DNA of 64,000 nt from Candidatus Kerfeldbacteria bacterium (GTDB taxonomy: Bacteria > Patescibacteriota > Patescibacteriia > UBA9570 > XYC2-FULL-38-9): the NCBI GenBank assembly GCA_016182555.1, contig JACPGJ010000008.1, positions 386,555 to 450,554 of the forward strand, in the 5' to 3' direction. Within the stretch, counting starts at the first letter, position 1, and every line of letters starts with the position of its first letter. This document shows, piece after piece, positions 25,400 to 43,555 of this stretch. Under the pieces are notes generated by a model. That model saw only the letters and a list, made by a program, of their open reading frames with translations. It did no database searches and was not told where the DNA came from. The translations under genes were made by a program, and so were the position numbers.

Positions 25400-25512
25400 T
25401 ATATTTCAAAAGTATTATTTTGTCAATATATATATGGTGATAATTATATGACAAAATATACTTGATTTATTTATTCAATATGCTATAATGTCATATATAA
25501 CATGACAAAAAT

Positions 25513-26271
25513 ATGATTTATTCAAAAGATCTTCAAACAATTGGATTTTCAAAAAACCAAGCAAAGGTCTATCTTGCTCTTTTTAATCTTGGGCAAGCGA
25601 AGGCATCCGCACTTATTGAAGCTACAGCATTGCATCGCAATCTTGTGTATACAGCCTTACAATCACTGGTGACGAAAAAACTGATTACCACCACCACAAT
25701 CCGCGGTGTTGCCTATTTCAAAATGCTTGATCCCGAACGAATTCTGAATGAAATTAAAATGAAAGAAACCGTCGCCCAACAATTCGTTGAAGAACTGCGT
25801 GCACAACGCAAACCACATGCGCAAGAAATTGTTGTATATGAAGGAATCGATGAAGTACGAAGGAAAGAATTAGAAAGTTATACGAATATGAAAAAAGAAG
25901 GAAGCATGTATTATCTTGGAGCATCTCCTCATTGGCATGAAGCCATGGGTGAACAACTGATACGTCAAATGACGCGTATCCAACGCGAAAAACAAATCAC
26001 TATTTATGGTATTGTCAGCACCAAAACACCAGAACTTGATTATTTTATGCATAATCGCAAACTCACGCACATTCAATATATTCCACACATCACTTCAGCA
26101 ATCAGTGAAACACAAATTCTTGCTGATCGTATCATGATTAAAACTTTTCTACCCCCTTACGCTGTTGTGGAAATTATCAACCCTGATATTGCCAAAAACT
26201 ACCGTGACTATTTTGATTTTATGTGGAAAGGCGCAAAAAATACAGTTGAACACGATATCACCACTGCGTGA
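25513..26271 (+). CDS. TrmB-family transcriptional regulator (paralog of 31088-31855)
   Basis: N-terminal TrmB wHTH (LQTIGFSKNQAKVYLALFNLGQAKASALIEATALHRNLVYTALQSLVTKKLI) and C-terminal sensor-like domain. Confidence 0.6.
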   Translation: MIYSKDLQTIGFSKNQAKVYLALFNLGQAKASALIEATALHRNLVYTALQSLVTKKLITTTTIRGVAYFKMLDPERILNEIKMKETVAQQFVEELRAQRKPHAQEIVVYEGIDEVRRKELESYTNMKKEGSMYYLGASPHWHEAMGEQLIRQMTRIQREKQITIYGIVSTKTPELDYFMHNRKLTHIQYIPHITSAISETQILADRIMIKTFLPPYAVVEIINPDIAKNYRDYFDFMWKGAKNTVEHDITTA

Positions 26272-26307: not shown

Positions 26308-27090
26308 TTATACCGGCCGTAATGTACCAGCAAATACTTGCCAAGCCAGTAAAGACTTGGCAACCAAACTCATAATAATGTAGACTTTCTCACCGTAGGT
26401 GTAGTCTTTCCACTTGCCTACCTTCTTGTACTGTAGCACCATATTCACCGCAAACGAGTTGAAGAAGAGAAACATTGAGAAGAAAATCCAATACACAAAT
26501 GTTGGCGCATGATGATCCGCATCACCGGAAAAAACTAAATAGCACGCAATCACGATCCACGGAATGGCGCCAGCAATGCAACCAAAAATGTAGGCTGTCC
26601 AATTGGTTTTTTTAGTCGATTGATTATGCAATTCCATCATCCAACCAAATAAAATCATCATCGCATTTAAACCAAACATGAGGAGTAAGCTAAAAACATC
26701 ATAGATGCCAACGAGCATGCCAATCACTACAATCATGAGCGACGAGCTCAGTGAATATTCAACCCAACGCGCATAGTTCGCGCCTTTTTTCAAATTCTTC
26801 ACATACCATTCATATATACCGGGTAATGACACCAATAAATGTGCCAAGGCCGACAGCGCAAAAAAACCCGCAACCAATGGTCCAACGGGTATTGTGGTTA
26901 ACTGCTGCAAATGTTGTTGCAGTGTAAATGTACGCGTATTAAAATTTAAAAATGCGGTCGTTAATGGCACTGCAAAAGAATTGCTCAACACCAGCACAGC
27001 CATAGCTTGTATGGCATGCAAGAAAAACATGACGATGTTCCACCGCCGAAGATTACGAAACGTTTTTGTATTTGGCATACTCCTCCTCAA
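26308..27090 (-). CDS. Heliorhodopsin (7-TM retinal-binding protein)
   Basis: Strong collinear identity to heliorhodopsin 48C12: RWVEYSLSSSLMIVVIG (48C12: RWVEYSLSSSVMIVLIA), MILFGW, FGCIAGAIPWI, SMFLFFNSFA, and the TM7 Schiff-base lysine in YIIMSLVAKSLLAWQVFAGTL (48C12: YIVLSLVAKSALAWQIFSGTL). Confidence 0.85.
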   Translation of the reverse strand: MRRSMPNTKTFRNLRRWNIVMFFLHAIQAMAVLVLSNSFAVPLTTAFLNFNTRTFTLQQHLQQLTTIPVGPLVAGFFALSALAHLLVSLPGIYEWYVKNLKKGANYARWVEYSLSSSLMIVVIGMLVGIYDVFSLLLMFGLNAMMILFGWMMELHNQSTKKTNWTAYIFGCIAGAIPWIVIACYLVFSGDADHHAPTFVYWIFFSMFLFFNSFAVNMVLQYKKVGKWKDYTYGEKVYIIMSLVAKSLLAWQVFAGTLRPV

Positions 27091-27221
27091 TTAATTTAAT
27101 TATAAAATATACTATAGCATAATAGTAAAATATATTCCTAAAAATGGCTATCATACATTCGCATTTTCAAAATTCGATAGTTTAAAGGAGCGTCGGCCCA
27201 TATACTCGATTTCTTTTTCAT

Positions 27222-28763
27222 TTAATGTAAACGGCGAGTTTCAAAATGTAATTTTCCCCCATGTACTGCTTGAAGATACAAAAATGATTTTTCTACTGAT
27301 TTAAATTGTTCCTCTACCGATATTATTTCTGTTCCTACATCAATTGGCTGTGCTAAAAAAAATAATTTTTTTTGTATAGTTGAATCTTTCCCCCGTCCTA
27401 CCTGCACATTGATTTCAAATTGATTATAGTCCGCAGAAATTGATCGAGCAGTATCAGCATTACAAATGAGATAACGACCATATAATGTTCTCTCAACATC
27501 TCGCATAATAAATTCATGCTCTAATTTCATAAATCCAGATCGACCTTCTATTGCGTTCACTTGATCAATAAGCTGTATAAAATGCTGATTACGTTCTTCA
27601 CTAGGAATATTAGTGTTTACATTTTCAAAATATGCTGAAGTGACTACCTGCTCAAGTAAACCATTGTCAAATAAACGATCTAACTCTTTACGTTCATCTA
27701 CATAAGAAGTTGAACCTTTGTAAGCATTTTCTTGTTGATCGTCATCATAACCAGATAAACGAACGGCGAGCCATTCTGTAATGGCTTCGTTCAACCAGTT
27801 AAACTTCATCTCCCATGAATCATATTTTTTTACTACAACACCGCTTTTACGAGATAAAAGGTCATGAACTGAAGATAGAGGATTATCTTGTTTCGTGTAT
27901 ATGTTAATTGATTTGCCTGCAATTTCATGAAGTAATTCATGAAAAATTGTTTTTCTCAAACGTGTCAATAATTTTGGCTGTAGTTGCTCATTGCTTACAG
28001 TAATTTTACCAGTATCAGAATGATCCCCTAATTTCGAAGATAATATATCTTCCATTTTATCTTGCAAGCATACTGTAACATCATCTATACGTGATAATGC
28101 ATTTTCAGCTTCTTGCGGTAACCAGCCATTTGTTACTGCTTCTTTTACTGCTTGCTTAAATTCTTGCTTTGTTTGCTGAACAAATTGTTCTAATTGTTCT
28201 TCCTGTTGTTGAACATGTTCTGAATGCTGTTTTGCGACTGCAAATAACAAATCGTCTGAAATGGAACCATCAGCAATTTTTCCATATAAGTTAGATGCTG
28301 TAAATTGAGAAAAATCATTACCAAAATGCTTTTGTAATTCTGCACGTATCCCGCTTGCACCAAACATCTGTTGTATTTCACTCATAACAAAGCCTCTTGC
28401 TCTTTCAAATTTATCATATATGAATAATTGCTCTAAATTTTGGACCATCCGTAGAAAAGGTGCACGGATGAATTCACTCATTTCTTTTTTCAATTGCTCA
28501 ATCAATTTAGTATTATGAGATATTCTACTTTGAATTGATTCCGTGCTGAGATTAGAATGACCGACTGAATCTAATTCTTGCTGTAATTCGTTGTTTTGTT
28601 GCTGCACATGCTCAATATCTTGCTTGTTACGTTCATAGATCTGCATGCCAACTCGTGCAAATACACGACTACTAGCAAAGCGACGGCTATTTTTGCGCTC
28701 TTTTATATATACGGCGTCACTCTCCGGTACCTGTGTACGAATTGACCAATTTTCATGTTGCAT
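27222..28763 (-). CDS. Hypothetical 513-aa cytoplasmic protein with coiled-coil N-terminus and HExxH motif (HELLHEIAG)
   Basis: Gln/Glu-rich coiled-coil segments. Single HExxH zinc-peptidase-like motif. No recognized family. Confidence 0.35.
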   Translation of the reverse strand: MQHENWSIRTQVPESDAVYIKERKNSRRFASSRVFARVGMQIYERNKQDIEHVQQQNNELQQELDSVGHSNLSTESIQSRISHNTKLIEQLKKEMSEFIRAPFLRMVQNLEQLFIYDKFERARGFVMSEIQQMFGASGIRAELQKHFGNDFSQFTASNLYGKIADGSISDDLLFAVAKQHSEHVQQQEEQLEQFVQQTKQEFKQAVKEAVTNGWLPQEAENALSRIDDVTVCLQDKMEDILSSKLGDHSDTGKITVSNEQLQPKLLTRLRKTIFHELLHEIAGKSINIYTKQDNPLSSVHDLLSRKSGVVVKKYDSWEMKFNWLNEAITEWLAVRLSGYDDDQQENAYKGSTSYVDERKELDRLFDNGLLEQVVTSAYFENVNTNIPSEERNQHFIQLIDQVNAIEGRSGFMKLEHEFIMRDVERTLYGRYLICNADTARSISADYNQFEINVQVGRGKDSTIQKKLFFLAQPIDVGTEIISVEEQFKSVEKSFLYLQAVHGGKLHFETRRLH

Positions 28764-28963
28764 ATGAATTATTTAGCAATAAAGAAAAATCGAGTATCAT
28801 GTATTGGCATATTTTGAATACCATTTCTGAATAACCTGCTTGGCTGACTACTGACGATGAAATTCGAACATATTATACCCAAAATTCGCATGAAACGAAA
28901 TAGGTTTGCTTAAAAAAAGAAATACTATCGCTATTGATAAATGAATGAATTCTATGTACACAA

Positions 28964-29701
28964 TTATTCACTCTTCTGTTCTTCTTTTAGTTTCGCAAAT
29001 TCTTCATTAAGAACACGTATAGCATAAGCATACTCTTTATCACTCATTTTGTCGGCTCCCAAAAACGGATTTTTTTTGAGCTTCTTTATAGATTGCTCTA
29101 TTTTTAATACGAACTGAACTATAGTTTGTTTGACTAATTTCTCTATTTCAGAACGAGACACCGATTGTATATCTTCTTCTGATATTTCTGATTCGTCCGC
29201 ATGAAATGCTACATATAATTGTTTTTCCAACGTATCAAGTTCTGGATAACTACGGGGTTCTCTGTAATATTCTATAGACCTTGCGCATACAGAAAGCCTT
29301 CCATTAATTGTCGCCATAAAACTATTACGTAAATCGTGTATATTCATAGCAGGAGGTGCAGCGACAGTGAAGCGCAGGCGTAATAATTTCTGCTCCTTCA
29401 TTTCATCACTTAATGATGGGTCATTTTCTATTGCCTGACGCTTATCTACTAAGACTTTTGTAAAGTCTGTTTCATCTGCAATCCTTTCTAATGCATTTGA
29501 AATAGCCTCATCATATAATCTTGTTTCCGCTGCACATTGTTGAATAACTTTCACCTGTGTTTCTAAATCACTACTAACCGCTTGTGTAAGCTTTTGCACA
29601 ACAACAGTAAGTGAACCCTCAAACGGAAGTTCATAGACTCTCTCACGTTCCTGCTCCGCTGTTCTTTTTGGACCATCTAACCCCATTCTGTTTTCTCCCA
29701 T
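28964..29701 (-). CDS. Hypothetical 245-aa coiled-coil protein
   Basis: Same strand and tight spacing with flanking genes. Charged, helical composition. Confidence 0.3.
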   Translation of the reverse strand: MGENRMGLDGPKRTAEQERERVYELPFEGSLTVVVQKLTQAVSSDLETQVKVIQQCAAETRLYDEAISNALERIADETDFTKVLVDKRQAIENDPSLSDEMKEQKLLRLRFTVAAPPAMNIHDLRNSFMATINGRLSVCARSIEYYREPRSYPELDTLEKQLYVAFHADESEISEEDIQSVSRSEIEKLVKQTIVQFVLKIEQSIKKLKKNPFLGADKMSDKEYAYAIRVLNEEFAKLKEEQKSE

Positions 29702-29728: not shown

Positions 29729-30892
29729 TTATTTCGCTTGAATAACAGTTACATTATGTTCATTATCAAAATCATGCTCCATAGGTCTGAGCAATGGATG
29801 TTGTTCAGCTAAATCTATAAACTTATCTTTTAGTTCAGCTAACTCACTTACCCTATAGCGCAAGGATGAAGAAAAAATAGCGTATCCTCCTGGCTTTACC
29901 AGAGATAACGCATTAAACAACGCTTCTCCATATACACTGTCTACTTCTGTGACAAATGTCATAGTGGAAATAACGGCATCATATTGTTGATTTCTAATGT
30001 TCTCAGGCACTGTATGCATATCAGAAATATCTCCTCTATGCACGATAGAATCATCCGGATCATTTGGAAATTGTATATCCAACCCAAATACTTCTGCACC
30101 AAATTCTTGAAGGGACTTCACGAACCTTCCTTGTCTTCCACATCCAATATCTAAAATGCGCATGCCTTGTAACACTTGTCTTTCTTTTAATTCATTTATG
30201 TTGGTTTTTTCGTAGCTTTCTCTTTGAGTTTTTAAAACTGTAGATAACACTTCTGTATTTTCCGGTCTTTCTAGGGCATATCCTAACAACATACCCATAG
30301 TGTATCCTAAATACTTAGAACCTTCTGTCCTCGTATCATAAAAACCGGAGGATATTAACCATTTACTCCGTAAATAATGATGAGCTCTATGTATCAAGCC
30401 AGATCGCATCCGTTGTTTTATTTTTGCATCATCCATGAATTCATAAAATGCTTCAGGGTGGGCAATGAAATTACGAATGTCGTTTAAACTATAGAGTTGA
30501 ATATCGTTACTATAATGTTTGACCGGAATATGCCCAACACATTTACTCTCTACACTATATTTTTTACTTTTATTAACGGTTACCCAAGCACCGTTTTCAT
30601 TTACATAACGTACACTGTATCCAGTGTATAGTTCGCTTTCCGGTAATGGTTCAACCGAGAATGAGATATCTGGAAACGCCACTTGTAGTGCTTCAATTAT
30701 TTGATCTGAGGAAAGATATTCAGGATTCAAATACCATGGTCTTTCCGGATTATAACGCTTGGGAAAAAGCTTTTGCCATTCTTCTGTAATACGCTGAGCA
30801 GTTGATTCATGCTCTATATTTTGATTTGGGGTACCAAATTTTTCCTCCCTCATAGGTATATTATTAATGATTGAGCTCTCTTTGGCAACCAT
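29729..30892 (-). CDS. Two-domain protein: N-terminal unknown domain + C-terminal class I SAM-dependent methyltransferase
   Basis: MTase motif I ILDIGCGRQGRFVKSL, acidic post-I FGLDIQ, motif IV-like LVKPGGYAIFSS. Confidence 0.5.
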   Translation of the reverse strand: MVAKESSIINNIPMREEKFGTPNQNIEHESTAQRITEEWQKLFPKRYNPERPWYLNPEYLSSDQIIEALQVAFPDISFSVEPLPESELYTGYSVRYVNENGAWVTVNKSKKYSVESKCVGHIPVKHYSNDIQLYSLNDIRNFIAHPEAFYEFMDDAKIKQRMRSGLIHRAHHYLRSKWLISSGFYDTRTEGSKYLGYTMGMLLGYALERPENTEVLSTVLKTQRESYEKTNINELKERQVLQGMRILDIGCGRQGRFVKSLQEFGAEVFGLDIQFPNDPDDSIVHRGDISDMHTVPENIRNQQYDAVISTMTFVTEVDSVYGEALFNALSLVKPGGYAIFSSSLRYRVSELAELKDKFIDLAEQHPLLRPMEHDFDNEHNVTVIQAK

Positions 30893-31042
30893 GTGTCGTG
30901 CTGCGTTCTCTTTCGCAGCACTTTGCCACGATCAAGGAACTTTATATACTATCAAATGTTTGAAATTTTTACACTTATATTTATTAACAAGGCATGAATT
31001 TAGAAAATGATCCACTTATAATAAAGAGTATTTTAAAAATAT

Positions 31043-31063
31043 AATGTCAAAAAACGTGACATT
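31043..31063. promoter_or_regulatory. Palindrome AATGTCA-N7-TGACATT upstream of TrmB paralog 2 (candidate autoregulatory operator); similar ATGTCA-N8-TGACAA at 25488-25508 before paralog 1
   Basis: Perfect 7-bp inverted arms 25 nt before the ATG. Both loci also carry an extra TATGACA half-site. Confidence 0.35.
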
Positions 31064-31087
31064 ATTAAAATTCTATGACATAATAGC

Positions 31088-31855
31088 ATGATGAATATCC
31101 AACAATCCCTGCAAGAATTTGGAATGACTGAACGTGAAGCTACAATCTACACAACACTTCTCCAAATAGGTGAAGGCAGTATTTTGGATATAGCAAAAAA
31201 TTCCAGCTTAAAGCGACCAACTATTTATACTGCCATGGAAGCCTTGGAAAATAAGGGGCTAATTTATCGTGTTATGCACGGGAAACGGACAAAATTTAAA
31301 GCAGCTCCGCCGCAAATGTTGCAATTGTTTTTGAAAAAAAGGGAACAACAGTTAACCGATTTACTGCCACAGTTGGAAGTTATGAGTAACTCTTCTTCTG
31401 GGGCAAAGCCAGAAATTCGCTATTTTGAAGGAAAAGAGGCGGTGATGTCATTATATCGTGCATTATTCACACGACTGGATAAAAAAGATGAAATATATTT
31501 TATTTCTTCAATTCGTGATCTCAAAATCAACTTTGCGGAACTGATGCATTATTTTGATGCACAATCTATCAAATGGCAGTGGAAAGTTCGCGAAATTGTG
31601 CCACACACAGCAAGCTCTCTTCAATACGTTCAAGAACATGGTCGTTCAGTGAATAAAAATTCACTACATTCTGTGCGCCTATTGCCGAAGGGATTGGATC
31701 TCTTTGATATGGAAATGATAATGACTAAAAATGCCATTATTCTTATTTCCGTTCAAAAAGAGATATTTGCGCTCTCAATGCATAGTCAAGCATTTGTGGA
31801 ATCATTTCGCTCCATTTTTCAAGCAGCTTGGATGGTTTCTATTGAACCAAAATAG
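31088..31855 (+). CDS. TrmB-family transcriptional regulator (paralog of 25513-26271)
   Basis: N-terminal wHTH QEFGMTEREATIYTTLLQIGEGSILDIAKNSSLKRPTIYTAMEALENKGLI. Confidence 0.6.
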   Translation: MMNIQQSLQEFGMTEREATIYTTLLQIGEGSILDIAKNSSLKRPTIYTAMEALENKGLIYRVMHGKRTKFKAAPPQMLQLFLKKREQQLTDLLPQLEVMSNSSSGAKPEIRYFEGKEAVMSLYRALFTRLDKKDEIYFISSIRDLKINFAELMHYFDAQSIKWQWKVREIVPHTASSLQYVQEHGRSVNKNSLHSVRLLPKGLDLFDMEMIMTKNAIILISVQKEIFALSMHSQAFVESFRSIFQAAWMVSIEPK

Positions 31856-31866: not shown

Positions 31867-32589
31867 TTAGGCATGATGATTGTGATGCTCACAATGTTTG
31901 TTATGCTGACCTTTCTCTGTACGGATCACCTGTCCATCCTCAAACCAAATCACTGTTTTTGCAATTTCTTGTAAACGCATATCATGACTGACAATAACCA
32001 CTGAACGATTTTCTGTACAGGCTATACTACAGAGCAATTTCATCACTTCATGACCAGATGTTGAATCGAGGTTTGCTGTTGGTTCATCTGCTAAAATGAG
32101 CGTTGGATTATTGACCAGTGCCCGAGCAATAGATACACGCTGTTTTTCACCACCTGAGAGATCACGTGGAAGATTATGTAAACGACCTCCTAAGCCAAGT
32201 TTTTGTAATGCTCCTGTAGCAATCATCATGGCCTCCTTTTTACTCTTTCCTGCGGCAATCAGTGGAACGGCGGTATTTTCTTGGGCAGTGAGTGAAGCAA
32301 GTAAGTTAAACGATTGAAAGATAAAACCGAGTTCTTTTAATCGTAATTGCGCTAATTCCTGTTCATGTAAATTGCCTAACACCTTTCCATGAATTTTAAC
32401 TTTGCCTTTTGATGCTTTGAGTAATGCACCAATCATAGTAATAAGTGTAGTTTTGCCAGAACCACTGGGACCCATAATGAGCATGATATCTCCTTTTTTT
32501 ACGTTCAAAGATACATCATTCACTGCGGTGACTTGTGTATTTCCAGAACCGTATATTTTGGATAAATGTTCTATTTCTGCAACAAACAT
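31867..32589 (-). CDS. ABC transporter ATP-binding protein (MacB/LolD-like) with His-rich C-terminal tail
   Basis: Walker A GPSGSGKTT. ABC signature LSGGEKQRVSIARAL. Walker B ILADEPT. C-terminal HNKHCEHHNHHA. Start set at MFVAEIEHL, just after the upstream permease stop. Confidence 0.8.
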   Translation of the reverse strand: MFVAEIEHLSKIYGSGNTQVTAVNDVSLNVKKGDIMLIMGPSGSGKTTLITMIGALLKASKGKVKIHGKVLGNLHEQELAQLRLKELGFIFQSFNLLASLTAQENTAVPLIAAGKSKKEAMMIATGALQKLGLGGRLHNLPRDLSGGEKQRVSIARALVNNPTLILADEPTANLDSTSGHEVMKLLCSIACTENRSVVIVSHDMRLQEIAKTVIWFEDGQVIRTEKGQHNKHCEHHNHHA

Positions 32590-32602
32590 ATAGATCAAGG
32601 AA

Positions 32603-33715
32603 TTAATTTTTAAATACCTCTGCTGGATCAATGGACGCCAAACGACGAACCGGGATATAGGTTGCAATAAGCGCCATTCCAATAGTAGCGCCGAACACCC
32701 ACACAATATCGATCAGTCTAAACTCAGTCATAAAACCTGCCACAAAATAGCGTGATAATCGAGCAACAGGATATGCAAGAATTAATCCAACAACATACCC
32801 AATGATTCCTGAAACAAGGGATTGAAACATGACAATGGCGTAGAGTTGTCGGTGAGTAACACCAATTGCTTTGAGCACGCCATATTCACGTGATTTTTCT
32901 ACAGTCGCCGAATAAATCGTAACACCGATGACCGCACTTCCGATAATGAACCCGATAATGACTAATACGTAAATAATAGGTAAGAAGCTATCTTTGATCA
33001 CTTGACGAGATGTATCAACAAACTCTTGCTTTGTTAGAACTTTGACACCTGGAATATCATTGATAATGGTATTTTTAATTTTTTCCTGATCTGCTTGCGG
33101 TGCAACTTGAATAACATAAAAGTTGACTTTGTCGCCTAATTGAAATAATTCCTTTGCCTCATTGAGTGTGACAAAGGCATATTGAAAAACCATCATGTTT
33201 CCACCACTTGAGATACCTCCTATCTTCAGCTTGCGTTCAGCAATCTGTATTTCATCACCAATGTTAAGATGCTGTTTTTTTGCAAACACCTCATCAATAA
33301 TGATTTCTCCATCTTTAAGGTCTTCCCATCGTCCATCTTCCATTGTTTTGGGTTTTCCAAAACCGGTTGCGGGATCCACTGCAACAATAAATAAAGACGT
33401 GTCTTCTCCATTCAATTTCAGTAACGTTTGACGGCCAAGGTATGGGTGAACCGTATTTACTCCATCGATCTGTTTCAGTTGGTCTGATAAATTATTGGGT
33501 AGAAATGATAATGCGTGGAACATATCTCCTACTCCATCCTGTTCGACCCATAAATCAGCTGGGATACTCTTGGGATACGCCCCCATGGATTCATTCCATC
33601 CTTCGTATAATCCATTGAGTAAAATAATAAGCACTACAGCAAAAGCAACGCCTCCTATACTCATGAAGAGTTTTGTGCGCTCTTGAAGTAAATTTTTTAA
33701 AGCGATAAATAACAT
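32603..33715 (-). CDS. ABC transporter permease, FtsX/MacB-type
   Basis: N-terminal TM, large periplasmic loop, C-terminal FtsX-like 3-TM bundle (AIGVTHRQLYAIVMFQSLVSGIIG). Confidence 0.75.
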   Translation of the reverse strand: MLFIALKNLLQERTKLFMSIGGVAFAVVLIILLNGLYEGWNESMGAYPKSIPADLWVEQDGVGDMFHALSFLPNNLSDQLKQIDGVNTVHPYLGRQTLLKLNGEDTSLFIVAVDPATGFGKPKTMEDGRWEDLKDGEIIIDEVFAKKQHLNIGDEIQIAERKLKIGGISSGGNMMVFQYAFVTLNEAKELFQLGDKVNFYVIQVAPQADQEKIKNTIINDIPGVKVLTKQEFVDTSRQVIKDSFLPIIYVLVIIGFIIGSAVIGVTIYSATVEKSREYGVLKAIGVTHRQLYAIVMFQSLVSGIIGYVVGLILAYPVARLSRYFVAGFMTEFRLIDIVWVFGATIGMALIATYIPVRRLASIDPAEVFKN

Positions 33716-33728: not shown

Positions 33729-35804
33729 TTAAATTAATTGATGCTCTACTCGTTTTAACAACACTGCATTCGTGGCCACAATAATAGAGGAGCCAGACAT
33801 TAACAACGCTGAAATTTCGGGACGTAAGTACCAACCAAACGTGGTGTAGAATACACCAGCTGCTACGGGAATGGCTAATATATTATAAATCGCTGCCCAA
33901 AACAGATTTTGTTTCATTTTTCTTACTGTCGCTTTACTTAATTGAATCGCTCGAACAATATCAAAGGGGTCTGATTTCATAAGCACTACACTAGCCGTTT
34001 CTATGGCTACATCGGTACCAGCGCCAATCGCAATGCCAATATCGGCTTGAGCTAATGCGGGCGCATCATTCACGCCATCACCCACCATTGCTACAAATTT
34101 ACCTTCATGTTGTAGTTGTTTCACATGATCGGCTTTTTTAGCTGGTAAGACATTGGCAAAAATTCGTTGAATACCAAGTTTCTTACCCACAGCTTCCGCT
34201 ACCGCCTGATGATCGCCTGTAATCATAGCAGGTTCAATCCCTAGCTCTTGTAAAGCAATAATGGCTTGCTTGGCGGTGGATTTAATAGTATCCGCTGCGG
34301 CAATAATGCCAGCACACTTGTCATTAACCGCTACAATGATTACTGTTTTACCTTCTTGCCCTAACTGTTGAATTGATTCTTGGATACTCATAGTATCAAT
34401 CTTCTGCTGTCTGAATAAATCTTCTTTGCCTACTAAAATAGTTTTACCTGCGATAGTTGCTTTTAAACCATAGCCAGTAATGGATTCAAAGTGTTCTACA
34501 GTATCCTTTAAACTAATCTTACGTTGTTGTGCTTCAGTCACCACAGCTTTCGCTAAAGGATGATTTGAGCCAGCCTCAACTACTGCTGCGTATTCGAGTA
34601 CTTGCGTTTCAGAAAATGCGTTCACCGCTATTACATCCGTCACTTTAGGTTTACCCTCTGTGAGGGTACCTGTTTTATCTAGCACAATAGCTGTTATTTT
34701 AGAAACATTTTCAAGCGTGGCAGCATCTTTAATTAAGATATTATGTTTTGCACCAATCCCTGTGCCAACCGCTACTGCAGTAGGCGTGGCTAAACCCAAG
34801 GCATCCGGACAGGCAATGACCACAGCTGAAATGGCAAAGGTAAGCGCTGTAATAAAGTTCACTTCACCAAATACAAACCAACCCACAAATGTAATGACAC
34901 CCGAGCCAATAGCTAGAATCACTAGCCAGGCAGCGGCTTTGTCGGCAATGCGTTGCCCAGGGGCTTTGGAATTTTGAGCGGTTTCAACTAACTTAATGAT
35001 TTGAGCCAGTACAGTTTCTGAACCTACTTGGGCAGCGGTAAATTTTAATACCCCCGTTTGATTCACTGAACCACCAACGACTTGATCGCCTTTTTGTTTG
35101 GTGACGGGAATAGATTCACCAGTGACTAATGATTCATCGACCGCAGATTCACCTTCAATTACTGCACCATCAACAGGAATTTTATCGCCAGGTTTTACTA
35201 GAACAATATCGTTATGCTGAATGTCTTTACTATCCACCTGTAACTCTTTACCGTCTCGAATTACGATCGCTTGTGGTGGTATTAAATCAAACAACGCTCG
35301 TAATGCATCCGACGTTCCTCGCCTGGACCTCATCTCCATCCAGTGGCCAAACAACACGAATGTCACTAATAACGCTGCTGCTTCATAAAAGCTCTCCCCA
35401 CCAACCGTAAACGTAAGTAATACACTAAATAGATATGATGCTAACACACCCGTCGCAATGAGCACCGACATGTCTAATTTGCGAGCTTTGAGCGCATAAT
35501 AGGTACCGGTAATAAAAATAGACCCTGCCCAGAACACCACCGGTGTCGTTAAGATAAATAATATCCAGTTCACAGGTATCGGTGCAGGTAACACAATCTT
35601 CAGCACATTCATACCAACAGGTGAATACAAAAAGATGGGAATCGATAAAATAAAAGAAATTAAAAATCGTCGTCGCATATCGGCTTCCATCTGTTTGGCC
35701 ATGCGCGGGTCGGTCATGGCTGCAGCATGATCGTGATGACTCATGTGCTGCATGGAATTATCTGTGTGTTTCGCTGTATGTTCCAAGTGTTGATGATCCT
35801 CCAT
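33729..35804 (-). CDS. P1B-type heavy-metal ATPase with His/Met-rich N-terminus and atypical CPD transmembrane motif
   Basis: [12 protein letters not shown] (CPx variant), [18 protein letters not shown]-terminal [30 protein letters not shown] metal-binding-like stretch. No HMA domain. Confidence 0.85.
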
Positions 35805-35969
35805 ATATATTACTGATTTATCATAACATATTTACATGCAAAAAACTTCATTCAGTGCATTTGATTGTGATCACGAGCATTTGAATGATCCTTATTTTCG
35901 GCATGATGTCCGCCATGCATAAACAGGTGAAAAAATCCGATTTTTGCTTGTTTTTTCATAGGTGTGCTA

Positions 35970-36248
35970 TTATTTTTTCTTTGATAGTTTATACACATTC
36001 ATGATCTCTCCTGTTGCTTTAGCAATATTTCCACTCTTCATCTGCTGCGCAACACATCCTGAAAGATGATTTTCTAAAATAAGATCTTCCACGGAAGAAA
36101 GCGCCTGTTTAACCGCTGCTGATTGAGTCAATATATCAATACAATATGTTCCTTCTTCAAGCATGCGTTGTAATGCACGCACTTGTCCTTCAACTATTTT
36201 TAGGCGACGAATCCCTTTGGTTTTATTGTCTTTCTTCATATGTGTCAT
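35970..36248 (-). CDS. csoR: CsoR/RcnR-family metal-sensing transcriptional repressor
   Basis: DUF156 fold with metal ligands (YCIDILTQ ... ENHLSGC). Confidence 0.75.
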   Translation of the reverse strand: MTHMKKDNKTKGIRRLKIVEGQVRALQRMLEEGTYCIDILTQSAAVKQALSSVEDLILENHLSGCVAQQMKSGNIAKATGEIMNVYKLSKKK

Positions 36249-36267
36249 TATACCCCTCTAGGGTATA
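36249..36267. promoter_or_regulatory. Candidate CsoR operator TATACCC-N5-GGGTATA between csoR and the divergent Met-rich gene
   Basis: 7-bp perfect inverted arms. Same ATACCC-N5-GGGTAT architecture recurs at 42981-42997, and both resemble the B. subtilis CsoR site TACCC...GGGTA. Confidence 0.45.
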
Positions 36268-36377
36268 TAGATCAAATTATTGGAAAATTATTGTATAAAA
36301 TATTTTAACCTATTGCTATTCTGTTTTTTATGGACTATACTTTGTACATAATCAATAAAATTATTAAGGAGGAATTT

Positions 36378-36704
36378 ATGGACAACAAAATTTTAACAAC
36401 AGTAGTAATAACACTTATTGTTGCTGGACTTGGTGGGTTTTATATCGGTAGAGCAAACCAACCATTCTCAAATTCATATATGCAGGGTTCTGCTTCAATG
36501 ATGAAAGAAAACGGAACAACAATGACGCAAATGGGACAAATGATGATGGGCGGAGGAAAAATGATGAAAGAAAAGGGCACACAGTACAATGACACTGACA
36601 TGATGCAACAAGGAAAAGAATGGGAAACAAAAGGACAAATGATGAATGATAAAGGTACAGAAATGATGGGTCGAGGCAACGGCATGATGGACATGATGAA
36701 ATAA
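36378..36704 (+). CDS. Methionine-rich small secreted/membrane-anchored protein (putative Cu(I)-binding MxxM protein)
   Basis: RBS aaggagg, N-terminal TM, then many MxxM / MMxxGxxMM motifs (QMGQMMMGGGKMMKEKG...GRGNGMMDMMK). Followed by terminator. Confidence 0.5.
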   Translation: MDNKILTTVVITLIVAGLGGFYIGRANQPFSNSYMQGSASMMKENGTTMTQMGQMMMGGGKMMKEKGTQYNDTDMMQQGKEWETKGQMMNDKGTEMMGRGNGMMDMMK

Positions 36705-36724
36705 CAAACGTATCTAAATAAAAA

Positions 36725-36757
36725 TACTCCCCTGAAATTATTGGGGAGTATTTTTTT
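36725..36757 (+). terminator. Rho-independent terminator after the Met-rich gene
   Basis: Stem tactcccc / ggggagta with loop tgaaattatt, then T7. Confidence 0.55.
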
Positions 36758-36772
36758 GTATAACAGGTATAT

Positions 36773-39700
36773 CTATTCTATACGGAACTCAGAACCAACC
36801 AAGTGCATTTGATCAAGAACAGTTCCAGTTTGCGGAAGCACGCCTGCAATAATCACATTATTCCCAAAGAAGTTATCCATACGATCACCTTCCTTCTGAA
36901 ATAGATTCTCCTTGCGCATAATTTCTGCCTCTTGCGAACCAATATACATCGATTGATAATTCTTTCCACCAATTGCTACTGTCGAAAAACTCTCTTTTCC
37001 AATTATGATATCCTTGTACACTGCTGGAATTGAATTTCCTTTTATTGGATAGAATAGTTTTAATTCATCACCTACTCGAACAGTCAATACCGGGTTTCCT
37101 TGGATCTGATCAAACGTTGGTATGGTAAGTATATGATAATCATCAAGAATACTGCCGGTGGGATTGAGTATTCCATTGATAGTGATTGTTGGAATTCCAA
37201 AAAAATTCGCTGTTGAATCCCCGGGTTTCTGAAGCAACTGTTTCTGCTTCATGATACTGGCTTCTGTTGCTCCCACAATCATAGCATTCGCATCAATTGA
37301 GGCATTTCCTTCTACCGATCCCACTGCCGGATCAAATTGATTCACTCCCAAGAAGAGTTTCACTTCATCATCAATATAGGCTATTTTTGTTTTTCCAGAA
37401 GAAATAAAGTTTGTTACTTCAGCTGTACTCTGGGTGGGCATCGTCTGTTCTGACTGTTCTTTTTCCATGCCACTACTCAAACGAGCAAATTGGAAAAATA
37501 CTCCTGTAAAGAGAATAACTAATATCACCGGGGCAATAAACGAAAGGTAATTTCGTTTTTGTGGACGGAATAAACGAAGCAGTAATGCATTCCCTACGAC
37601 TGAGATAGAACTGAATGCCATAGCAAGTCCAGCAAGTTCGGGTTTTAAGACTAAACCAAATGACACAAAGATACGTGCGGCAATTGGTATACCAATAATG
37701 TTGTAAAAAAGTGCAAAGAATAAATTTTGTTTAATTTTATTCATTGTCTCCTTTGCGAGTTGGAATGCAGTCACCACATCACGCAAATCACTCTTCATCA
37801 AAATAATACCACCCGTTTCCATGGCCACATCTGTTCCGGAACCCATTGCAATACCCAAATTCGCTTGAGCGAGAGCAGGTGCATCATTGACCCCGTCCCC
37901 TACCATAGCAACTCTGTTTCCGGCATCTTGTAATTTTTTCACTTCACTGGCTTTATGCTCTGGTAATACTTCAGCGAGTACATTCGTAATGCCTACCTGC
38001 TGTGCAATAGCGTGTGCGGTGCGTTGATTGTCACCTGTAATCATATACACATCCATGCCCATGGTTTGCAATTTTTCAATTGCTTGCTTGGATGTGTCTT
38101 TCACTGTATCCGCAACCGCAACAATACCCACAACTTCCTTTTCTGTTGCCAAAATCATCACCGTTTTCCCTTGTTCTTCTAAACGCACCAGTTTTCGATT
38201 TATTTTATCAATGGATAAACCAACTTTTTCACCAATCAATTTTCTGTTACCGAAGAAATAGACCATCGTATCAACAGTTCCTTGTACACCATGTCCTGGA
38301 ATGGCTTGAAATTGTTGAACATCAGCAAAAGATACAGACTCTTCTTGAGCATAGGAATATATTGCTTCAGCCAGTGGATGTTCAGAGAGTTTCTCTAGGC
38401 TTGCAGCAATTGCCAACACATCATCCTCATCAGTCACACCAAGACTCACCACATCAGTTACTTCTGGCTTCCCTTTTGTGATCGTTCCCGTTTTATCAAA
38501 TATCACCGTCGTAATCTTTTGGGCTGCTTGAAGTGGTTCACCTCCTTTAATCAAGATGCCCTGTTCAGCACCTTTCCCTGTCCCAACCATAATGGCTGTT
38601 GGCGTGGCGAGTCCCAACGCACACGGACAAGCAATTACAATCACCGCGGTAAATGCCATTAACGCAAATGTAATGCTAGCGCCCAGAACGAGATACCATA
38701 CAATGAACGTGAGAATAGCAATACCAATAACAATGGGAACAAACTTCGCAGAAATTCTGTCAGCAAAATTTTGAATCGGCGCTTTTGATCCTTGAGCTTC
38801 TTCAATCAGGCGAATAATTTGAGCGAGCGATGTTTCGCTGCCCACTCGAGTTGCTTCAAATTCGAAGCTCCCTTGTTTATTCATTGTTCCACCAATAACG
38901 GTATCGCCCCCATTTTTTTCGACCGGCAAACTCTCCCCGGTAATCATTGATTCATCTACAGCAGAAGAACCACTCACAATTTTTCCATCAACAGGAATTG
39001 TTTCTCCTGGACGCACAATCACCCTGTCGCCATGCAATACATCCTCTACAGGAATATCTTCTGTGATGCCGCCACGAATAACACGAGCCGTTTTTGCTTG
39101 CAAGCCCATCAGTTTTTTAATGGCATCAGATGTCTTTCCTTTGGTGCGTGATTCTAGCCATTTCCCCAACACCACAAACGTAATCAAGAACGCCGCTGTT
39201 TCAAAATACAATTCACCAATTTTTTCACCACCAACACCAATGAGTGAACGATTATTCACTACGTACAGAATGTAATTTACCAAACTGTAGAAAAACGCTG
39301 TGGATGTTCCAATGGCAATGAGACTATCCATATTAAATGTCTTCATGCGCAAGGAAGACCACATGCCTTTATAAAATCCATAGCCAATCACAAATTGCAC
39401 AGGAATGGTGAGGATAAGTGACACAATGCCAATGTATGGTAAGAGTGTTTGCGCACCGGGCATCCACTTGAAAAAATCGAGCAGCATGAAATAGAACATT
39501 GGAAGACTCAGTACTGCGCTAGCGATAAATTTTTTCCAATATAATCGAATTTCCTTTTGACGTTTTCGTGTTTCAAATTCTGTGTCTTTTACATCAACTT
39601 CTTGCGCTTTGTATCCCGCTTTTTCAACGGCTGCAATCAGTTGTGGAATTTGCACTACACTCGGGTTATACGTCACCAACGCTTTTTCTGCAGCAAAATT

Positions 39701-40408
39701 GGCACTTGCCTGCTGTACCCCATTTACTTTTTTAAGCGAGCGCTCAATAATATTGGCGCACGATGCGCAATGCATACCAGATAACGATAAATTCACCCGC
39801 TTCTGTGTTTCGGTTATTGAATCTATCGGTGTTTTTGCTGAAGCTACGGAAGAAACGGTCGTATGATTCTGTGTATTCGTTGGCGTAATCAATGTTTGCT
39901 GTTCTGGAGAAGAACTAAACAACGTTGATACATGCAGCGATTTCATAATTTGTTCAATCAATCCAACAGCAACGGGAGTTTGATCTTGTCCGTCAAATGT
40001 TGTTTTCTTTTGTGTTTTTACATTTCCATCAAAATATGGTTTCCCATCAGCATCAGAAAATATTTTTCCCTCAGCCTCTATGGTTGTTTCCCACGTTGCT
40101 TTGAATGGTTGCCCATTTTGTTGTTCTGTTTCACTTTTTGGAACGATTGGTGCGTGTTGTTCAGGTTTTTGTACAGATTCAATATTCTCTTCTGATGTCA
40201 GAGTGGCAGTATAGCCAGCACGTGTAATCGCATCAAGAACATCTTGAGTACTTTGTTGAGTTGTATCGAGCATTGCGGTGTATATTCCAGTACGATGGTC
40301 AACAACAATTTCACTCAACCCTGATAACTCCTCACATTCTGCGTGAATGATTTTTTCGCATGCATCGCATGTCATGCCTTGTACTTGTATAGTAATTTTT
40401 TTCTTCAT
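36773..40408 (-). CDS. copA: Copper-translocating P1B-ATPase CopA-like with two N-terminal HMA domains and a ~300-aa C-terminal extracytoplasmic tandem-repeat extension
   Basis: Two GMTCDAC/GMHCASC HMA domains. [27 protein letters not shown]. After the last TM there is a duplicated ~100-aa module ([42 protein letters not shown] / [41 protein letters not shown]). Confidence 0.85.
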
Positions 40409-40423
40409 AAGTGTATGTATTTA

Positions 40424-40627
40424 CTACTCAACAATGGTGTATTCTGTATCTTGAAATACTGCTCGAATTTCATCAAGAGAAATTTCTCTATCAGTTTGAA
40501 TTTCCGTTTTCCCATCCAACCCAGAAATATTCACCTCTTGAACTCCGGCAATTTTTTTGAGTTTCATAGTGCTTAAACGAATACATGCATCACAGTGAAA
40601 GCCCTGTATTATAAATGTAATATTCAT
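40424..40627 (-). CDS. copZ: HMA-domain copper chaperone (CopZ-like)
   Basis: MNITFIIQGFHCDACIRLSTMKLKKIAGVQEVNI ferredoxin-like HMA fold with CxxC. Confidence 0.6.
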   Translation of the reverse strand: MNITFIIQGFHCDACIRLSTMKLKKIAGVQEVNISGLDGKTEIQTDREISLDEIRAVFQDTEYTIVE

Positions 40628-40644
40628 ATAGATATAAATTATTT

Positions 40645-42486
40645 TTATAGTACGGTAATTGTTCCTCGTGGCACTCCCATTGCACATGTAATTTCATATG
40701 TTCCTGGTTGTGTTGGAGTGAAATTCATTGCAACTGTTTTGCCTTTCTCCAATAACTCTGGTGTATTGTACAATGTAGGAATCATAATAGTGCTCATACA
40801 ACCAGAACCATTTTCTTTTGCTTCAATTTCAAATCGTACTGGTTTTCCAGATTGAACAGTAAATGTATTTGGCTGAATATCTGTATTATATGTATACGCT
40901 GTTTTAATTAACTGTATATCAGCAGAATCTTGTTGCTGAGTAACTCCTTGGATTTTTTCTGCGCTCACGTTACTGCCTGCACCACAACTCCCTGATCCAC
41001 CACCGCATCCACATCCTCCACTTTTTTGAGCATTCCCACAGGAACCTCCCTGCTGCCCAGACGCAATAGCACTATTACTATTTGAATCAACTTGATTTGA
41101 AGTGGGTTGAACATTATTTGTTTGGCTGGCAGGATTAACTACTTCAAATGACCCTCGATACATTCCCATTGAACAAGAAAACGCGATTTTCCCTGTTTCG
41201 GTTGGAGTAAATTCAATAATATTTTCGCCAGCAACAAGCCTCTTTTGTACATTTAATGCTGATGACACTAGACTACTTGCACAAGAATATGAATCCTGTG
41301 CATCAATGATCCATCGAACAGGAATGCCTTTTTGAATAGTAAACTTATTTGGTGAATACCCACGAGCGGTTTCTGTCATACGCACAATTTGCACTCCGTT
41401 TTCCATTGTGACATTTGGGTCGGCTGCAGTGGTTTCATTGGAGTCTGCAAGACCAGCGTTGAATCCAGTGAGATGATATCCATTAGAAATATTAAACAAG
41501 GCAAATAAGATTACGACAACCCCTGCAAACTTGAAGAACCGTTGTGCAAACACTCCTTTGACTGCAGAAGAAATTCCCCCAATACCTAGTAATCCCGGAG
41601 CTGTACCAAGAGCAAATACCCCCATAATGAGAGCACCTTTTGTAAAGCTGCCACTACTCATTGCATATAATTGCATCGCTTGCGTAAATCCACATGGCAA
41701 GAAAAAGGTGAGCGCGCCAAGAACGGCTGCACCTCGGTGGTTATATTCTTTTTCATGCCGCTCGATTCCCAAAAACTTACTAATGCTTGATGGAAGTGTA
41801 ATGCTCACATCGTCTAATTTTGGAAATATGCCAACAAGTTTTGCTCCAAGAAGCAACATGACTACGCCAATAACTAGAGTTAATATACCAAGTGTAATTG
41901 TTGATAGTTGCAATACTGAACCAACTGCTCCCAAAAGACCACCCAGCACTACATACGACGCAATACGTCCAAAATTAAAGAAAAGATGTGGTCGAAATTT
42001 TTGCATGACCGTTGCTTCCGGATGCCTTTCTGCGTGCCGTGCTGACAAACCAAGAATTAATCCACCAACCAAAGCCATACATGTTGAAAATCCTGCGGTT
42101 AGTCCAATAAGTAATACAATGGGAATACTACTTGGGTTTGATCCTGAAGATATATTGATATTCAATAGTCCTGTTTCTTTTAATAGCAGATATGCGCCAA
42201 AAAGAAATAAGAATGCAATACCAAGGTCTTTATAGTCACGTGGATTTTTACTGAGCCACGTTTTCTTATCTGGGTTGCCAATCGAATATCCAGCTTCCTG
42301 AATTGCTTGTTCAACCTCACTCATTTTTGGCTTCTGCTGATCATAATAAATATGTGCTTTGTGGTTTTTATAACTCACTTCTGCTTTTGATACTTCAGGA
42401 ATTTCTGATAATTTATCACCAATGAGAATTTCACATGATCGACAATGCATTCCACGAATAGGAACTGTAAGACAGTGTTTTTTCAT
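40645..42486 (-). CDS. Fusion protein: N-terminal HMA domain + DsbD/CcdA-like polytopic membrane domain + two C-terminal cupredoxin-like (Cupredoxin_1) domains joined by a Gly/Cys-rich linker
   Basis: MHCRSCE HMA. About 8 TMs. Duplicated FTIQKGIPVRW...SCSMGMYRGSFEVV and FTVQSGKPVRF...TCAMGVPRGTITV. Linker GGSCGNAQKSGGCGCGGGSGSCG. Confidence 0.6.
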   Translation of the reverse strand: MKKHCLTVPIRGMHCRSCEILIGDKLSEIPEVSKAEVSYKNHKAHIYYDQQKPKMSEVEQAIQEAGYSIGNPDKKTWLSKNPRDYKDLGIAFLFLFGAYLLLKETGLLNINISSGSNPSSIPIVLLIGLTAGFSTCMALVGGLILGLSARHAERHPEATVMQKFRPHLFFNFGRIASYVVLGGLLGAVGSVLQLSTITLGILTLVIGVVMLLLGAKLVGIFPKLDDVSITLPSSISKFLGIERHEKEYNHRGAAVLGALTFFLPCGFTQAMQLYAMSSGSFTKGALIMGVFALGTAPGLLGIGGISSAVKGVFAQRFFKFAGVVVILFALFNISNGYHLTGFNAGLADSNETTAADPNVTMENGVQIVRMTETARGYSPNKFTIQKGIPVRWIIDAQDSYSCASSLVSSALNVQKRLVAGENIIEFTPTETGKIAFSCSMGMYRGSFEVVNPASQTNNVQPTSNQVDSNSNSAIASGQQGGSCGNAQKSGGCGCGGGSGSCGAGSNVSAEKIQGVTQQQDSADIQLIKTAYTYNTDIQPNTFTVQSGKPVRFEIEAKENGSGCMSTIMIPTLYNTPELLEKGKTVAMNFTPTQPGTYEITCAMGVPRGTITVL

Positions 42487-42550
42487 ATAGTATAGTTACT
42501 TGTTTAGAATAGGAAACACAGACACGAGCGTGTCTTAACTGTATACTATT

Positions 42551-42931
42551 CTATTCCCGCAAAATGACTGTATTAAACAAATAATGTGGAAAATACCAGA
42601 ATTGCCGTTGCCACTGAAATAGCGGTCTTACCTGAGGAATGATGAACCAATACATCACGGTCACTAATAACGCAAAAACAAATGGTAGTGAAAAACTGAC
42701 AATATTTACTGGTGAAGCGGCACTCAAACAATGTGAAACACATTCAACAGATTTTTGAATAGGTAATTGACAATCTGCAGATTGAACTTGACATGACTCC
42801 ACGGCAAGGTGTTCATTGCTATGTATAGGTATATGATTCACATTTGAAGAATCATGTATGACAAAAAAAGCACCGCCCCACATATACGCAGCGAATGATA
42901 CTCCAATAATGATACTGATCCAATGCTTCAT
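42551..42931 (-). CDS. Small Cys/His-rich membrane protein, first gene of the operator-controlled copper operon
   Basis: Two TMs flank CQVQSADCQ...ECVSHC. Operator-like palindrome immediately upstream. Confidence 0.35.
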   Translation of the reverse strand: MKHWISIIIGVSFAAYMWGGAFFVIHDSSNVNHIPIHSNEHLAVESCQVQSADCQLPIQKSVECVSHCLSAASPVNIVSFSLPFVFALLVTVMYWFIIPQVRPLFQWQRQFWYFPHYLFNTVILRE

Positions 42932-42980
42932 AGATTGTGTATAACCTTATTGTTCATCAACTTTCGTTACCAATGATATA

Positions 42981-42997
42981 ATACCCCTATAGGGTAT
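42981..42997. promoter_or_regulatory. Candidate CsoR operator ATACCC-N5-GGGTAT upstream of the 42931-36773 operon
   Basis: Near-perfect palindrome ATACCCCTATAGGGTAT, same architecture as 36249-36267. Confidence 0.45.
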
Positions 42998-43022
42998 ATG
43001 TGTCAATCAATAGTTATATTTT

Positions 43023-43280
43023 TTACTTTATATCTACATTCACTCCAAAATGTTTTTTGTATACCGCTTTACGCTTTTTAAACATTTGCTCAAAGAAACC
43101 AATCCATTGATCATGATAATCATACACCATACACGGTTGCTGCGATCCACGTTGCAAGCGACCAATGTATTGTTTTAATTTGATCGCTGATGAAAATGGG
43201 TACACTAAAAACAGCACATCAAAGTGAACAATATCTGTACCCTCACCTACTAATTGACCAGTTGCGATCACAATTTCAGG
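43023..43280 (-). pseudogene. Helicase C-terminal domain remnant (superfamily 2 motif V/VI fragment)
   Basis: IVIATGQLVGEGTDIVHFDVLFLVYP...YIGRLQRG matches helicase motifs V-VI. Only ~85 aa remain. The N-terminal part of the ORF is antisense to the IS fragment. Confidence 0.45.
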
Positions 43281-43519: not shown

Positions 43520-43555
43520 CCGGCCAGTAGTGTGCGACTATTCGTGAATAACAAG

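Follow-up and report, generated by a model that had tools for sequence, protein, structure and literature searches.

A canonical and very probably stand-alone heliorhodopsin gene in a Candidatus Kerfeldbacteria genome

Introduction

The closest characterised relatives of the heliorhodopsin (HeR) described here are TaHeR, from the Thermoplasmatales archaeon SG8-52-1 (PDB 6is6, 7clj, 7u55), and 48C12, the founding HeR, of actinobacterial-type origin (PDB 6su3, 6uh3, 9ljj). HeRs modulate glutamine synthetase, photolyase and an ABC exporter in a light-dependent manner through their cytoplasmic loops; 38.6% of HeR genes are co-transcribed with their neighbours, and about 61% stand alone (PMC11109279). 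A sensory role has also been proposed (Bulzu et al., 2021, PMC8612252).

A screen of 1,326 CPR genomes found HeRs in Saccharimonadia, Dojkabacteria, ABY1 and others, with SLVAK one of the commonest retinal motifs; the genomes that bear them have reduced metabolic capacities, and a role in mitigating oxidative stress was proposed (Chiriac et al., 2022, PMC9166423). CPR bacteria that carry rhodopsins lack blh, and uptake of retinal from their hosts has been suggested (Jaffe et al., PMC9296517). The same paper, citing Shihoya 2019, describes the TaHeR host as lacking a retinal pathway and gives uptake through a lateral opening as the proposed route.

We analysed a 64-kb stretch of DNA (the window) from the genome of a Candidatus Kerfeldbacteria bacterium (CPR/Patescibacteria). 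We take the Kerfeldbacteria to be placed in class ABY1 (GTDB). The gene content of the window is bacterial and CPR-like, with TopA, RelA/SpoT, ParAB, DnaX, CysS, Dus, large surface proteins and a TrwB-like ATPase. The features discussed below are collected in Table 1.

Table 1. Coordinates of HeR, its neighbours and their expression signals in the window
Feature	Position	Strand	Remarks
Heliorhodopsin (HeR) CDS	26308..27078	(-)	256 aa, stop codon included; ATG at 27078
HeR expression signals (predicted)	27080..27119	(-)	extended -10 TGcTATAGT 27119..27111; ribosome-binding site GAGGAGGAG 27088..27080; read from sequence
TrmB1, TrmBL2-like winged-helix regulator	25513..26271	(+)	PF01978, E 1.3e-11, 44.6 bits (cut-off 25.6)
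TrmB1 promoter/operator region (predicted)	25421..25507	(+)	TATAAT 25484..25489 and two inverted repeats
TrmB1 distal inverted repeat, TGTCA-N23-TGACA	25421..25453	(+)
TrmB1 proximal palindrome, TGTCA-N9-TGACA	25489..25507	(+)	begins at last base of TATAAT
TrmB2, TrmB-type winged-helix protein	31088..31855	(+)	PF01978, E 3.4e-15, 56.1 bits (cut-off 25.6)
TrmB2 promoter/operator (predicted)	31040..31080	(+)	TATAAT 31040..31045; palindrome TGTCA-N7-TGACA 31045..31061; half-site 31076..31080
513-aa protein	27222..28763	(-)	HExxH/NEAxTE motifs, no Pfam match; 143-bp gap to HeR
245-aa protein	28964..29701	(-)	acidic, probably coiled-coil
387-aa protein	29729..30892	(-)	SAM-methyltransferase domain

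Results

Family assignment and conserved residues

The HeR protein matches Pfam PF18761 over the full length of the profile (positions 1-242 of 242; 340.4 bits against a cut-off of 26.7; E 6.5e-102) and the NCBIfam equivalog NF038020, "heliorhodopsin HeR" (347.9 bits, cut-off 100), and no other Pfam family, type-1 bacteriorhodopsin included, reaches E<=0.01. In the PDB it finds TaHeR 6is6 (E 1e-77), the 48C12 entries (6su3 at E 7e-67; 6su3, 6uh3 and 9ljj at about 1e-66) and 9vfc, a 317-aa HeR (E 4e-45). The lysine of TM7, K241, falls in the same alignment column as the Schiff-base lysines of 48C12 (Lys241) and TaHeR (Lys238). Because the best profile match is to HeRs and this lysine is aligned, assignment to another seven-transmembrane family fails, and the gene is a heliorhodopsin, as the first-pass annotation had proposed.

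We compared residues in a MAFFT alignment of HeR with its 120 closest database homologues. HeR is 55% identical to TaHeR over 246 aligned residues and 48% identical to 48C12, with which it is collinear apart from two small indels; the "near-collinear identity" with 48C12 claimed earlier thus amounts to collinearity at which about half of the residues are identical, TaHeR being the closer of the two. The motifs quoted in its support are all present, namely RWVEYSLSSS (residues 104-113), FGCIAGAIPW (165-174), FLFFNSFA (203-210) and SLVAKSLLAW (237-246), and the first and third are identical in 48C12. The SxxxK motif, S237-L-V-A-K241, runs column for column with the 48C12 and TaHeR structures, and the K241 column is 100% conserved among the 120 homologues. 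The counterion Glu107 on TM3 is present, as are the two histidines beside the Schiff base, His21 (H23 of 48C12) and His80. Twenty-two of the 25 functionally discussed positions that we checked agree with 48C12. Residues shared with it are N14, H21, Q24, S76, H80, N101, R104, W105, E107, Y108, S112, N138, M141, E149, W174, F203, F206, A210, Y226, E230, S237, K241 and W246; the numbering of the two proteins coincides at H80, E107, S237 and K241. Among the exceptions is the position of 48C12 Q213, where HeR has Met, as do TaHeR and 91% of the 120 closest homologues. Only at one position, L73F, does HeR depart from a consensus of at least 90% among these homologues.

TaHeR, an archaeal protein where HeR is from a CPR bacterium, shares with it length, seven-helix layout, SxxxK motif, Glu counterion, both histidines and the Met at 48C12 Q213. 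S112 and N138 of HeR follow 48C12, where TaHeR has Ala113 and Thr139, the TM5-TM6 loop (GDADHHAP) is four residues longer than that of TaHeR, and the extracellular TM1-TM2 hairpin is two residues longer than that of 48C12. Like published CPR HeRs (PMC9166423), HeR carries SLVAK.

The protein has seven hydrophobic segments, delimited by reference to aligned 48C12; these replaced an automatic hydropathy segmentation that gave six segments, TM3 and TM4 being merged. Lys and Arg number 14 on the N-terminal side (N-terminus and loops 2-3, 4-5 and 6-7) against 2 on the opposite side, which predicts an inverted topology with a cytoplasmic N-terminus. This N-in arrangement is a trait that sets HeRs apart from type-1 rhodopsins. 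Loops 2-3 and 6-7 are strongly basic and resemble the interaction surfaces described for other HeRs (PMC11109279).

An identical 256-aa protein is deposited at NCBI as [quoted passage not shown]; the contig that encodes it is 598,550 bp long, and its locus tags have the form HYV32_*. HeR has 7,999 homologues at E<=1e-10, the nearest labelled Patescibacteria, Kerfeldbacteria or Dojkabacteria. The gene is thus already annotated in GenBank, and nothing about it is unusual for its family.

Start codon and expression signals

The gene had first been placed at 26308-27090, an open reading frame of 260 codons on the minus strand if counted from a TTG at 27090. The gene is real there; its start is not. 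Because the TTG falls within the ribosome-binding site, and because gene callers and GenBank agree on the ATG, we set the coding sequence as given in Table 1.

The extended -10 box lies about 30 nt 5' of the ATG. A ATGCTATA(A/G)T box is common to the upstream regions of HeR and TrmB1, and boxes resembling TGnTATACT or TATAGT occur 25-45 nt 5' of HeR in the relatives at loci L002, L003, L010 and L014. HeR therefore appears to be transcribed from an extended -10 promoter of its own and to have a strong ribosome-binding site.

We found no intrinsic terminator between the gene for the 513-aa protein and HeR, nor between the convergent HeR and TrmB1 genes, where folding z-scores of 0.16 and 0.45 for the spacer indicate that there is no hairpin; read-through from upstream, or antisense overlap at HeR, is thus possible. 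A terminator-like match at 26363..26338 was rejected, as it lies within the HeR coding sequence. Horizontal acquisition of HeR, which we also weighed, has left no compositional signal, the GC content of the gene (0.416) being the same as the window mean (0.41).

TrmB-type genes and their predicted operators

HeR had been described as flanked by TrmB-family regulators. Both genes exist and TrmB1 is indeed adjacent, in convergent orientation with 36 bp between the stop codons, but TrmB2 lies 4 kb upstream of the HeR start, behind three minus-strand genes. TrmB1 and TrmB2 share 22% identity (BLASTP, E 6e-9). An AF2 model of TrmB1 (pLDDT 86) retrieves TrmBL2 (5bpd, E 5e-13) and TrmB (3qph, 3e-9) with Foldseek, and its C-terminal domain retrieves Zucchini/PLD6 at 4e-5. 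The modelled TrmB1 would thus share with TrmBL2 (5bpd) an N-terminal winged helix, a long helix and a PLD-like C-terminal domain, at a sequence identity of 13-14% to TrmBL2 and TrmB. TrmBL2 is an archaeal chromatin protein. Both TrmBL2 and TrmB are archaeal, whereas TrmB1 and TrmB2 are bacterial; the latter two are also shorter than TrmB (about 250 aa against about 340 aa) and lack its sugar-binding subdomain. Against the NCBIfam equivalogs for TrmB, TrmBL1 and TrmB-Halo they score 18-38 bits, where the cut-offs are 500-650. They are TrmB-family winged-helix proteins and not orthologues of the sugar-sensing TrmB.

A TGTCA-N-TGACA palindrome stands just upstream of each gene, as had been noted before. 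Palindromes of the form TGTCA-N(0-12)-TGACA occur exactly twice in the 64 kb, at these two places. The count is not unusual, because 44 of 100 shuffled sequences contain at least two; the weight rests on placement instead. In both cases the first base of the palindrome is also the final base of a TATAAT box, and the palindrome lies 5 nt (TrmB1) or 26 nt (TrmB2) 5' of the start codon. Half-sites are dense around them, with four in the 87 bp of the TrmB1 operator region and three in 31045..31080, whereas the window averages 0.18 per 100 bp. The one further cluster of half-sites, at 42697..42870, lies within an ORF for a 126-aa membrane protein of a copper cluster and was treated as chance. The layout recurs in related genes: at locus L093, a TrmB1 orthologue at 60% identity keeps the distal TTGTCA...TGACAA repeat together with ATGCTATAAT-aTCATATATActATGACA at its start codon, orthologues at 45-50% identity have multiple upstream half-sites, and half-sites are enriched 5' of three of the four other TrmB-type genes examined. 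As the palindromes overlap the -10 boxes of the TrmB genes themselves, they point to autoregulation, with TrmB1 and TrmB2 probably acting as independent regulators, each with an operator over its own promoter.

The first-pass annotation had gone further, suggesting that the two paralogues bind these palindromes and jointly control the HeR locus. TrmB1 is after all a direct neighbour of HeR, convergent at 36 bp, and a terminator hairpin is lacking from the spacer; the 195-bp divergent region that TrmB2 shares with the string of genes (methyltransferase, 245-aa, 513-aa) running toward HeR contains the TrmB2 operator; and, within the window, such palindromes accompany the two TrmB genes alone. 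However, the palindromes sit where autoregulation would place them, and HeR has a predicted promoter and a ribosome-binding site to itself. TGTCA/TGACA half-sites are absent from the 143 bp 5' of HeR (27079..27221), from 28764..28963 and from the 36-bp HeR/TrmB1 spacer.

Nor is the association conserved. Among 80 other species-representative HeR loci from GTDB genomes, taken with 10-kb flanks, just one (L015) has a TrmB-type gene within 10 kb of HeR, at a distance of 1.8 kb and with 23% identity. The three closest HeR relatives have no TrmB linkage, which is absent overall from 80 of 81 other HeR loci, and the closest relatives (91%, 86% and 81% identity, and L014 at 78%) have entirely different neighbours. 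Conversely, four TrmB1 homologues (45-60% identity) adjoin genes for AdoMet decarboxylase, a Mg-chelatase-like protein, a T4SS pilin and alanine racemase, and HeR is beside none of them. A metagenome scan with TrmB1 returned only two weak fragments, too little to be informative. Our literature searches found no paper on heliorhodopsin and TrmB together. Given the lack of half-sites at HeR, its own promoter and the unconserved linkage, a regulatory link between TrmB and HeR is not supported, and we regard joint control of the locus as very unlikely. The proximity of TrmB to HeR appears incidental, and TrmB1 is best seen as an independent neighbour outside any HeR unit.

The same adjacency can be read in the other direction, with HeR and the convergent TrmBL2-like protein forming a relay from light to transcription, in which the cytoplasmic loops of illuminated HeR would bind or release the winged-helix protein and so change the occupancy of the TGTCA/TGACA operators. 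Such a relay would resemble the reported control of a helix-turn-helix regulator by Gloeobacter rhodopsin (PMC11217422). We consider it extremely doubtful for this locus.

Upstream genes and neighbours at other HeR loci

HeR and the genes for the 387-, 245- and 513-aa proteins are all on the minus strand, which raises the alternative that they form a four-gene operon ending with HeR. Its light-regulated partner would then be the 513-aa protein, a putative metalloprotease in which FHELLHEIAG and NWLNEAITEW form a gluzincin-like HExxH...NEAxTE pattern, as read from its sequence. HeRs are known to regulate enzymes of their own operon (PMC11109279), and no convincing terminator separates the 513-aa gene from HeR. 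Against this, intergenic distances of 143 and 200 bp would be large within an operon, and the 143-bp gap, 5' of HeR, holds a good extended -10 box. None of the 80 other HeR loci contains a homologue of the 513-, 245- or 387-aa protein, and a 42%-identical homologue of the 513-aa protein, whose unannotated family comprises about 309 clusters, is not beside a HeR. The three genes also have a GC content (0.35-0.37) below that of HeR. An operon of this kind is very improbable, and we treat the three genes as an unrelated, lineage-specific block.

When homologues of every neighbour in the window were sought in the 80 HeR loci, generic ABC ATPases alone recurred. When the ORFs lying up to 6 kb from HeR were clustered all against all, no family extended to more than 14 of the 83 loci. 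Of the ten published classes of HeR neighbour, none adjoins HeR here on the same strand within co-transcription distance; the nearest ABC transporter, of MacB type (31867..33715), is 4.8 kb from HeR, beyond TrmB2. Histidine kinases and response regulators are enriched near HeRs (PMC8612252), but none lies near the Kerfeldbacteria HeR, whose neighbours are lineage-specific hypothetical genes and the TrmBL2-like regulator.

Other HeR loci gave several observations of their own. In the HeR clade nearest to this gene, a conserved 337-aa protein without a Pfam match is encoded directly beside HeR at L082, L084 and L014 and 5 kb from it at L002. For 11 of the 30 closest HeR homologues, the size of the contig equals that of a contig bearing a member of this family, some of these contigs being 2.8-6.6 kb long. 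An AF2 model of the protein (pLDDT 85.6) has an acetoacetate-decarboxylase-like (ADC-fold) beta-cone with a C-terminal membrane anchor, and Foldseek matches it to 3c8w and 3bgt (E 3e-6 to 1e-5). The family has no BLASTP match at E<=1e-3 among all ORFs of at least 60 aa in the window, and none of its 120 best database homologues is on the 598,550-bp contig. A general linkage of this family to HeR was rejected, as its members in Saccharibacteria and WWE3 are not HeR-linked. The 337-aa protein may reflect clade-specific synteny or be a real HeR partner; it could be the usual HeR partner of the clade, or a retinal-handling factor, that was lost or moved in this genome. A literature search combining heliorhodopsin and acetoacetate decarboxylase found nothing relevant. 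Separately, a pyrimidine-dimer glycosylase adjoins HeR in six CPR loci, and SDR, DUF2177 and DUF1295 genes recur at CPR HeR loci, in agreement with published groupings.

Retinal supply

About 58 ORFs of the 64-kb window, among them all plausible genes of 110 aa or more, were scanned against Pfam. The scans showed neither a further rhodopsin nor any member of the blh/BCD, RPE65 or crtB/I/Y-type families (phytoene synthase, desaturase, lycopene cyclase). For the window, which makes up 64 kb of the 598,550-bp contig, this bears out the earlier reading that HeR is its only rhodopsin-like gene and that retinal-biosynthesis genes (blh/crt) are absent. To our knowledge, CPR genomes generally lack blh and crt genes. 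Because of this and of the absence of such genes nearby, retinal is probably taken up from other organisms or cells.

Discussion

We suggest that the locus is very probably best explained as a stand-alone, canonical heliorhodopsin gene in a Candidatus Kerfeldbacteria (CPR/Patescibacteria) genome. By analogy with its characterised homologues (48-55% identity), HeR would form a protonated Schiff base between K241 and all-trans retinal, with E107 as the counterion, and would absorb green light. Characterised HeRs absorb in the visible range, OcHeR for instance at 554 nm (PMC11109279). The photocycle of HeR, like those of TaHeR and 48C12, is expected to be slow and to pump no ions, and the protein would sense light and, by way of its positively charged cytoplasmic loops, modulate a partner protein. 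HeR would belong to the "helR alone" class, transcribed from its own promoter.

A different role would be that of an ion transporter, building up or draining the membrane potential of a CPR cell that is short of energy. Light energy would benefit CPR cells, and a proton-transporting HeR, V2HeR3, is known from giant viruses (cited in PMC11109279 and PMC12873467). However, the closest characterised relatives, TaHeR and 48C12, are described as non-transporting, the residues of the Schiff-base region of HeR are all of the non-transporting type, and transport has been assigned in the literature only to viral HeRs that have no neighbouring partner genes (PMC11109279). We consider transport extremely unlikely, and retain a sensory, stand-alone HeR as the preferred reading.

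As it stands, HeR adds one more heliorhodopsin to thousands and matters little. HeRs in CPR bacteria (PMC9166423) and scavenging of retinal by CPR rhodopsin bearers that lack blh (PMC9296517) are both published, so that the identification of HeR and the scavenging idea are already in the literature. The conserved, membrane-anchored ADC-fold protein beside HeR in the nearest relatives may be a more useful lead than the gene flagged at the outset. The value of this locus is modest: it offers a clean "HeR alone" case in a very small genome and, as whatever partner HeR has is not encoded beside it, helps to confine the search for what most HeRs do in the cell.

Features of the window away from heliorhodopsin

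Within its anticodon loop, the initiator-type tRNA-Met(CAT) gene of the window harbours a group I intron of 299 nt, matched by Rfam RF00028 at 8247..8477 (54.2 bits). The default tRNA scan of the window overlooked this gene, and ARAGORN recovers it only when introns are permitted.

A large copper/heavy-metal cluster encodes two P-type ATPases, one carrying HMA domains, an HMA-DsbD_2-cupredoxin fusion, a small Cys-rich membrane protein and a CsoR-type repressor. Upstream lies a perfect palindrome, ATACCCTATAGGGGTAT (42981..42997), which looks like a CsoR-type operator. The low-GC stretch adjoining tRNA-Gln is probably a decayed integrated element: it holds a serine-resolvase gene, a truncated DUF2268 protease, and short fragments that have no Pfam match and look like broken genes.

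Coordinates of features in the window and in heliorhodopsin (HeR) loci of other genomes (L-numbers, own coordinates)
Feature	Location	Strand	Basis or remark
Initiator-type tRNA-Met(CAT), group I intron	8197..8570	+	Rfam RF00028, ARAGORN
513-aa protein, immediately upstream of HeR	27222..28763	-	sequence motifs
MacB/FtsX-type ABC transporter genes	31867..33715	-	
Copper/heavy-metal cluster	33729..42997		
CsoR-type repressor	~35970..36239	-	in copper cluster
Low-GC stretch	43000..47010		GC 0.34 at 44-46 kb
Serine-resolvase gene	45113..45754		within low-GC stretch
tRNA-Gln	46936..47010		adjoins low-GC stretch
HeR paralogues	L082:6883-7653; 10001-10771		81%; 91% identity to window HeR
337-aa family beside HeR	L082:8962-9975; L084:10780-11793; L014:7370-8374; L002:3730-4719		outside window; 5 kb from HeR in L002
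PF03013 glycosylase beside HeR	L021:10772-11101; L027:10775-11104; also L009, L028, L064, L070		

Heliorhodopsin neighbourhoods

Among the nearest relatives of the window HeR, a conserved 337-aa protein directly adjoins HeR. It has no Pfam match; an AF2 model and Foldseek searches with it show a predicted acetoacetate-decarboxylase-like beta-cone fold and, at the C-terminus, a membrane anchor. Its family numbers ~921 members in CPR, the remoter ones without HeR linkage, and we found no paper in the literature connecting HeR with an acetoacetate-decarboxylase-like protein. No member was found in the window, where the TrmBL2-like gene holds the equivalent position. In the genome with the closest HeR (L082), two HeR paralogues are separated by 2.3 kb and adjoin a block of terminase, recombinase, SduA_C, HEPN and TerB_N genes resembling a prophage or a defence island.

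In the window itself, the 513-aa protein beside HeR belongs to an unannotated family of ~309 representative clusters. Its HExxH (FHELLHEIAG) and NWLNEAITEW motifs are, judged by sequence, typical of gluzincin metalloproteases, and are preceded by a long N-terminal region that is probably coiled-coil. MacB/FtsX-type ABC genes lie 1-5 kb from HeR both at this locus and at several others from Kerfeldbacteria/CPR (L010, L022, L084), and ABC ATPases were the sole family to reach 14 of the 83 HeR neighbourhoods clustered. A functional link between HeR and an ABC transporter has been published (PMC11109279); given how abundant ABC genes are, the proximity may be coincidence.

In six of the 83 loci HeR has a pyrimidine-dimer DNA glycosylase (PF03013, E 3e-25) as its neighbour, and in two of these six the glycosylase lies downstream at a distance of just 7 bp. 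This arrangement fits the published association of HeR with photolyase and UV repair (PMC11109279), the repair enzyme here being a pyrimidine-dimer DNA glycosylase rather than a photolyase.
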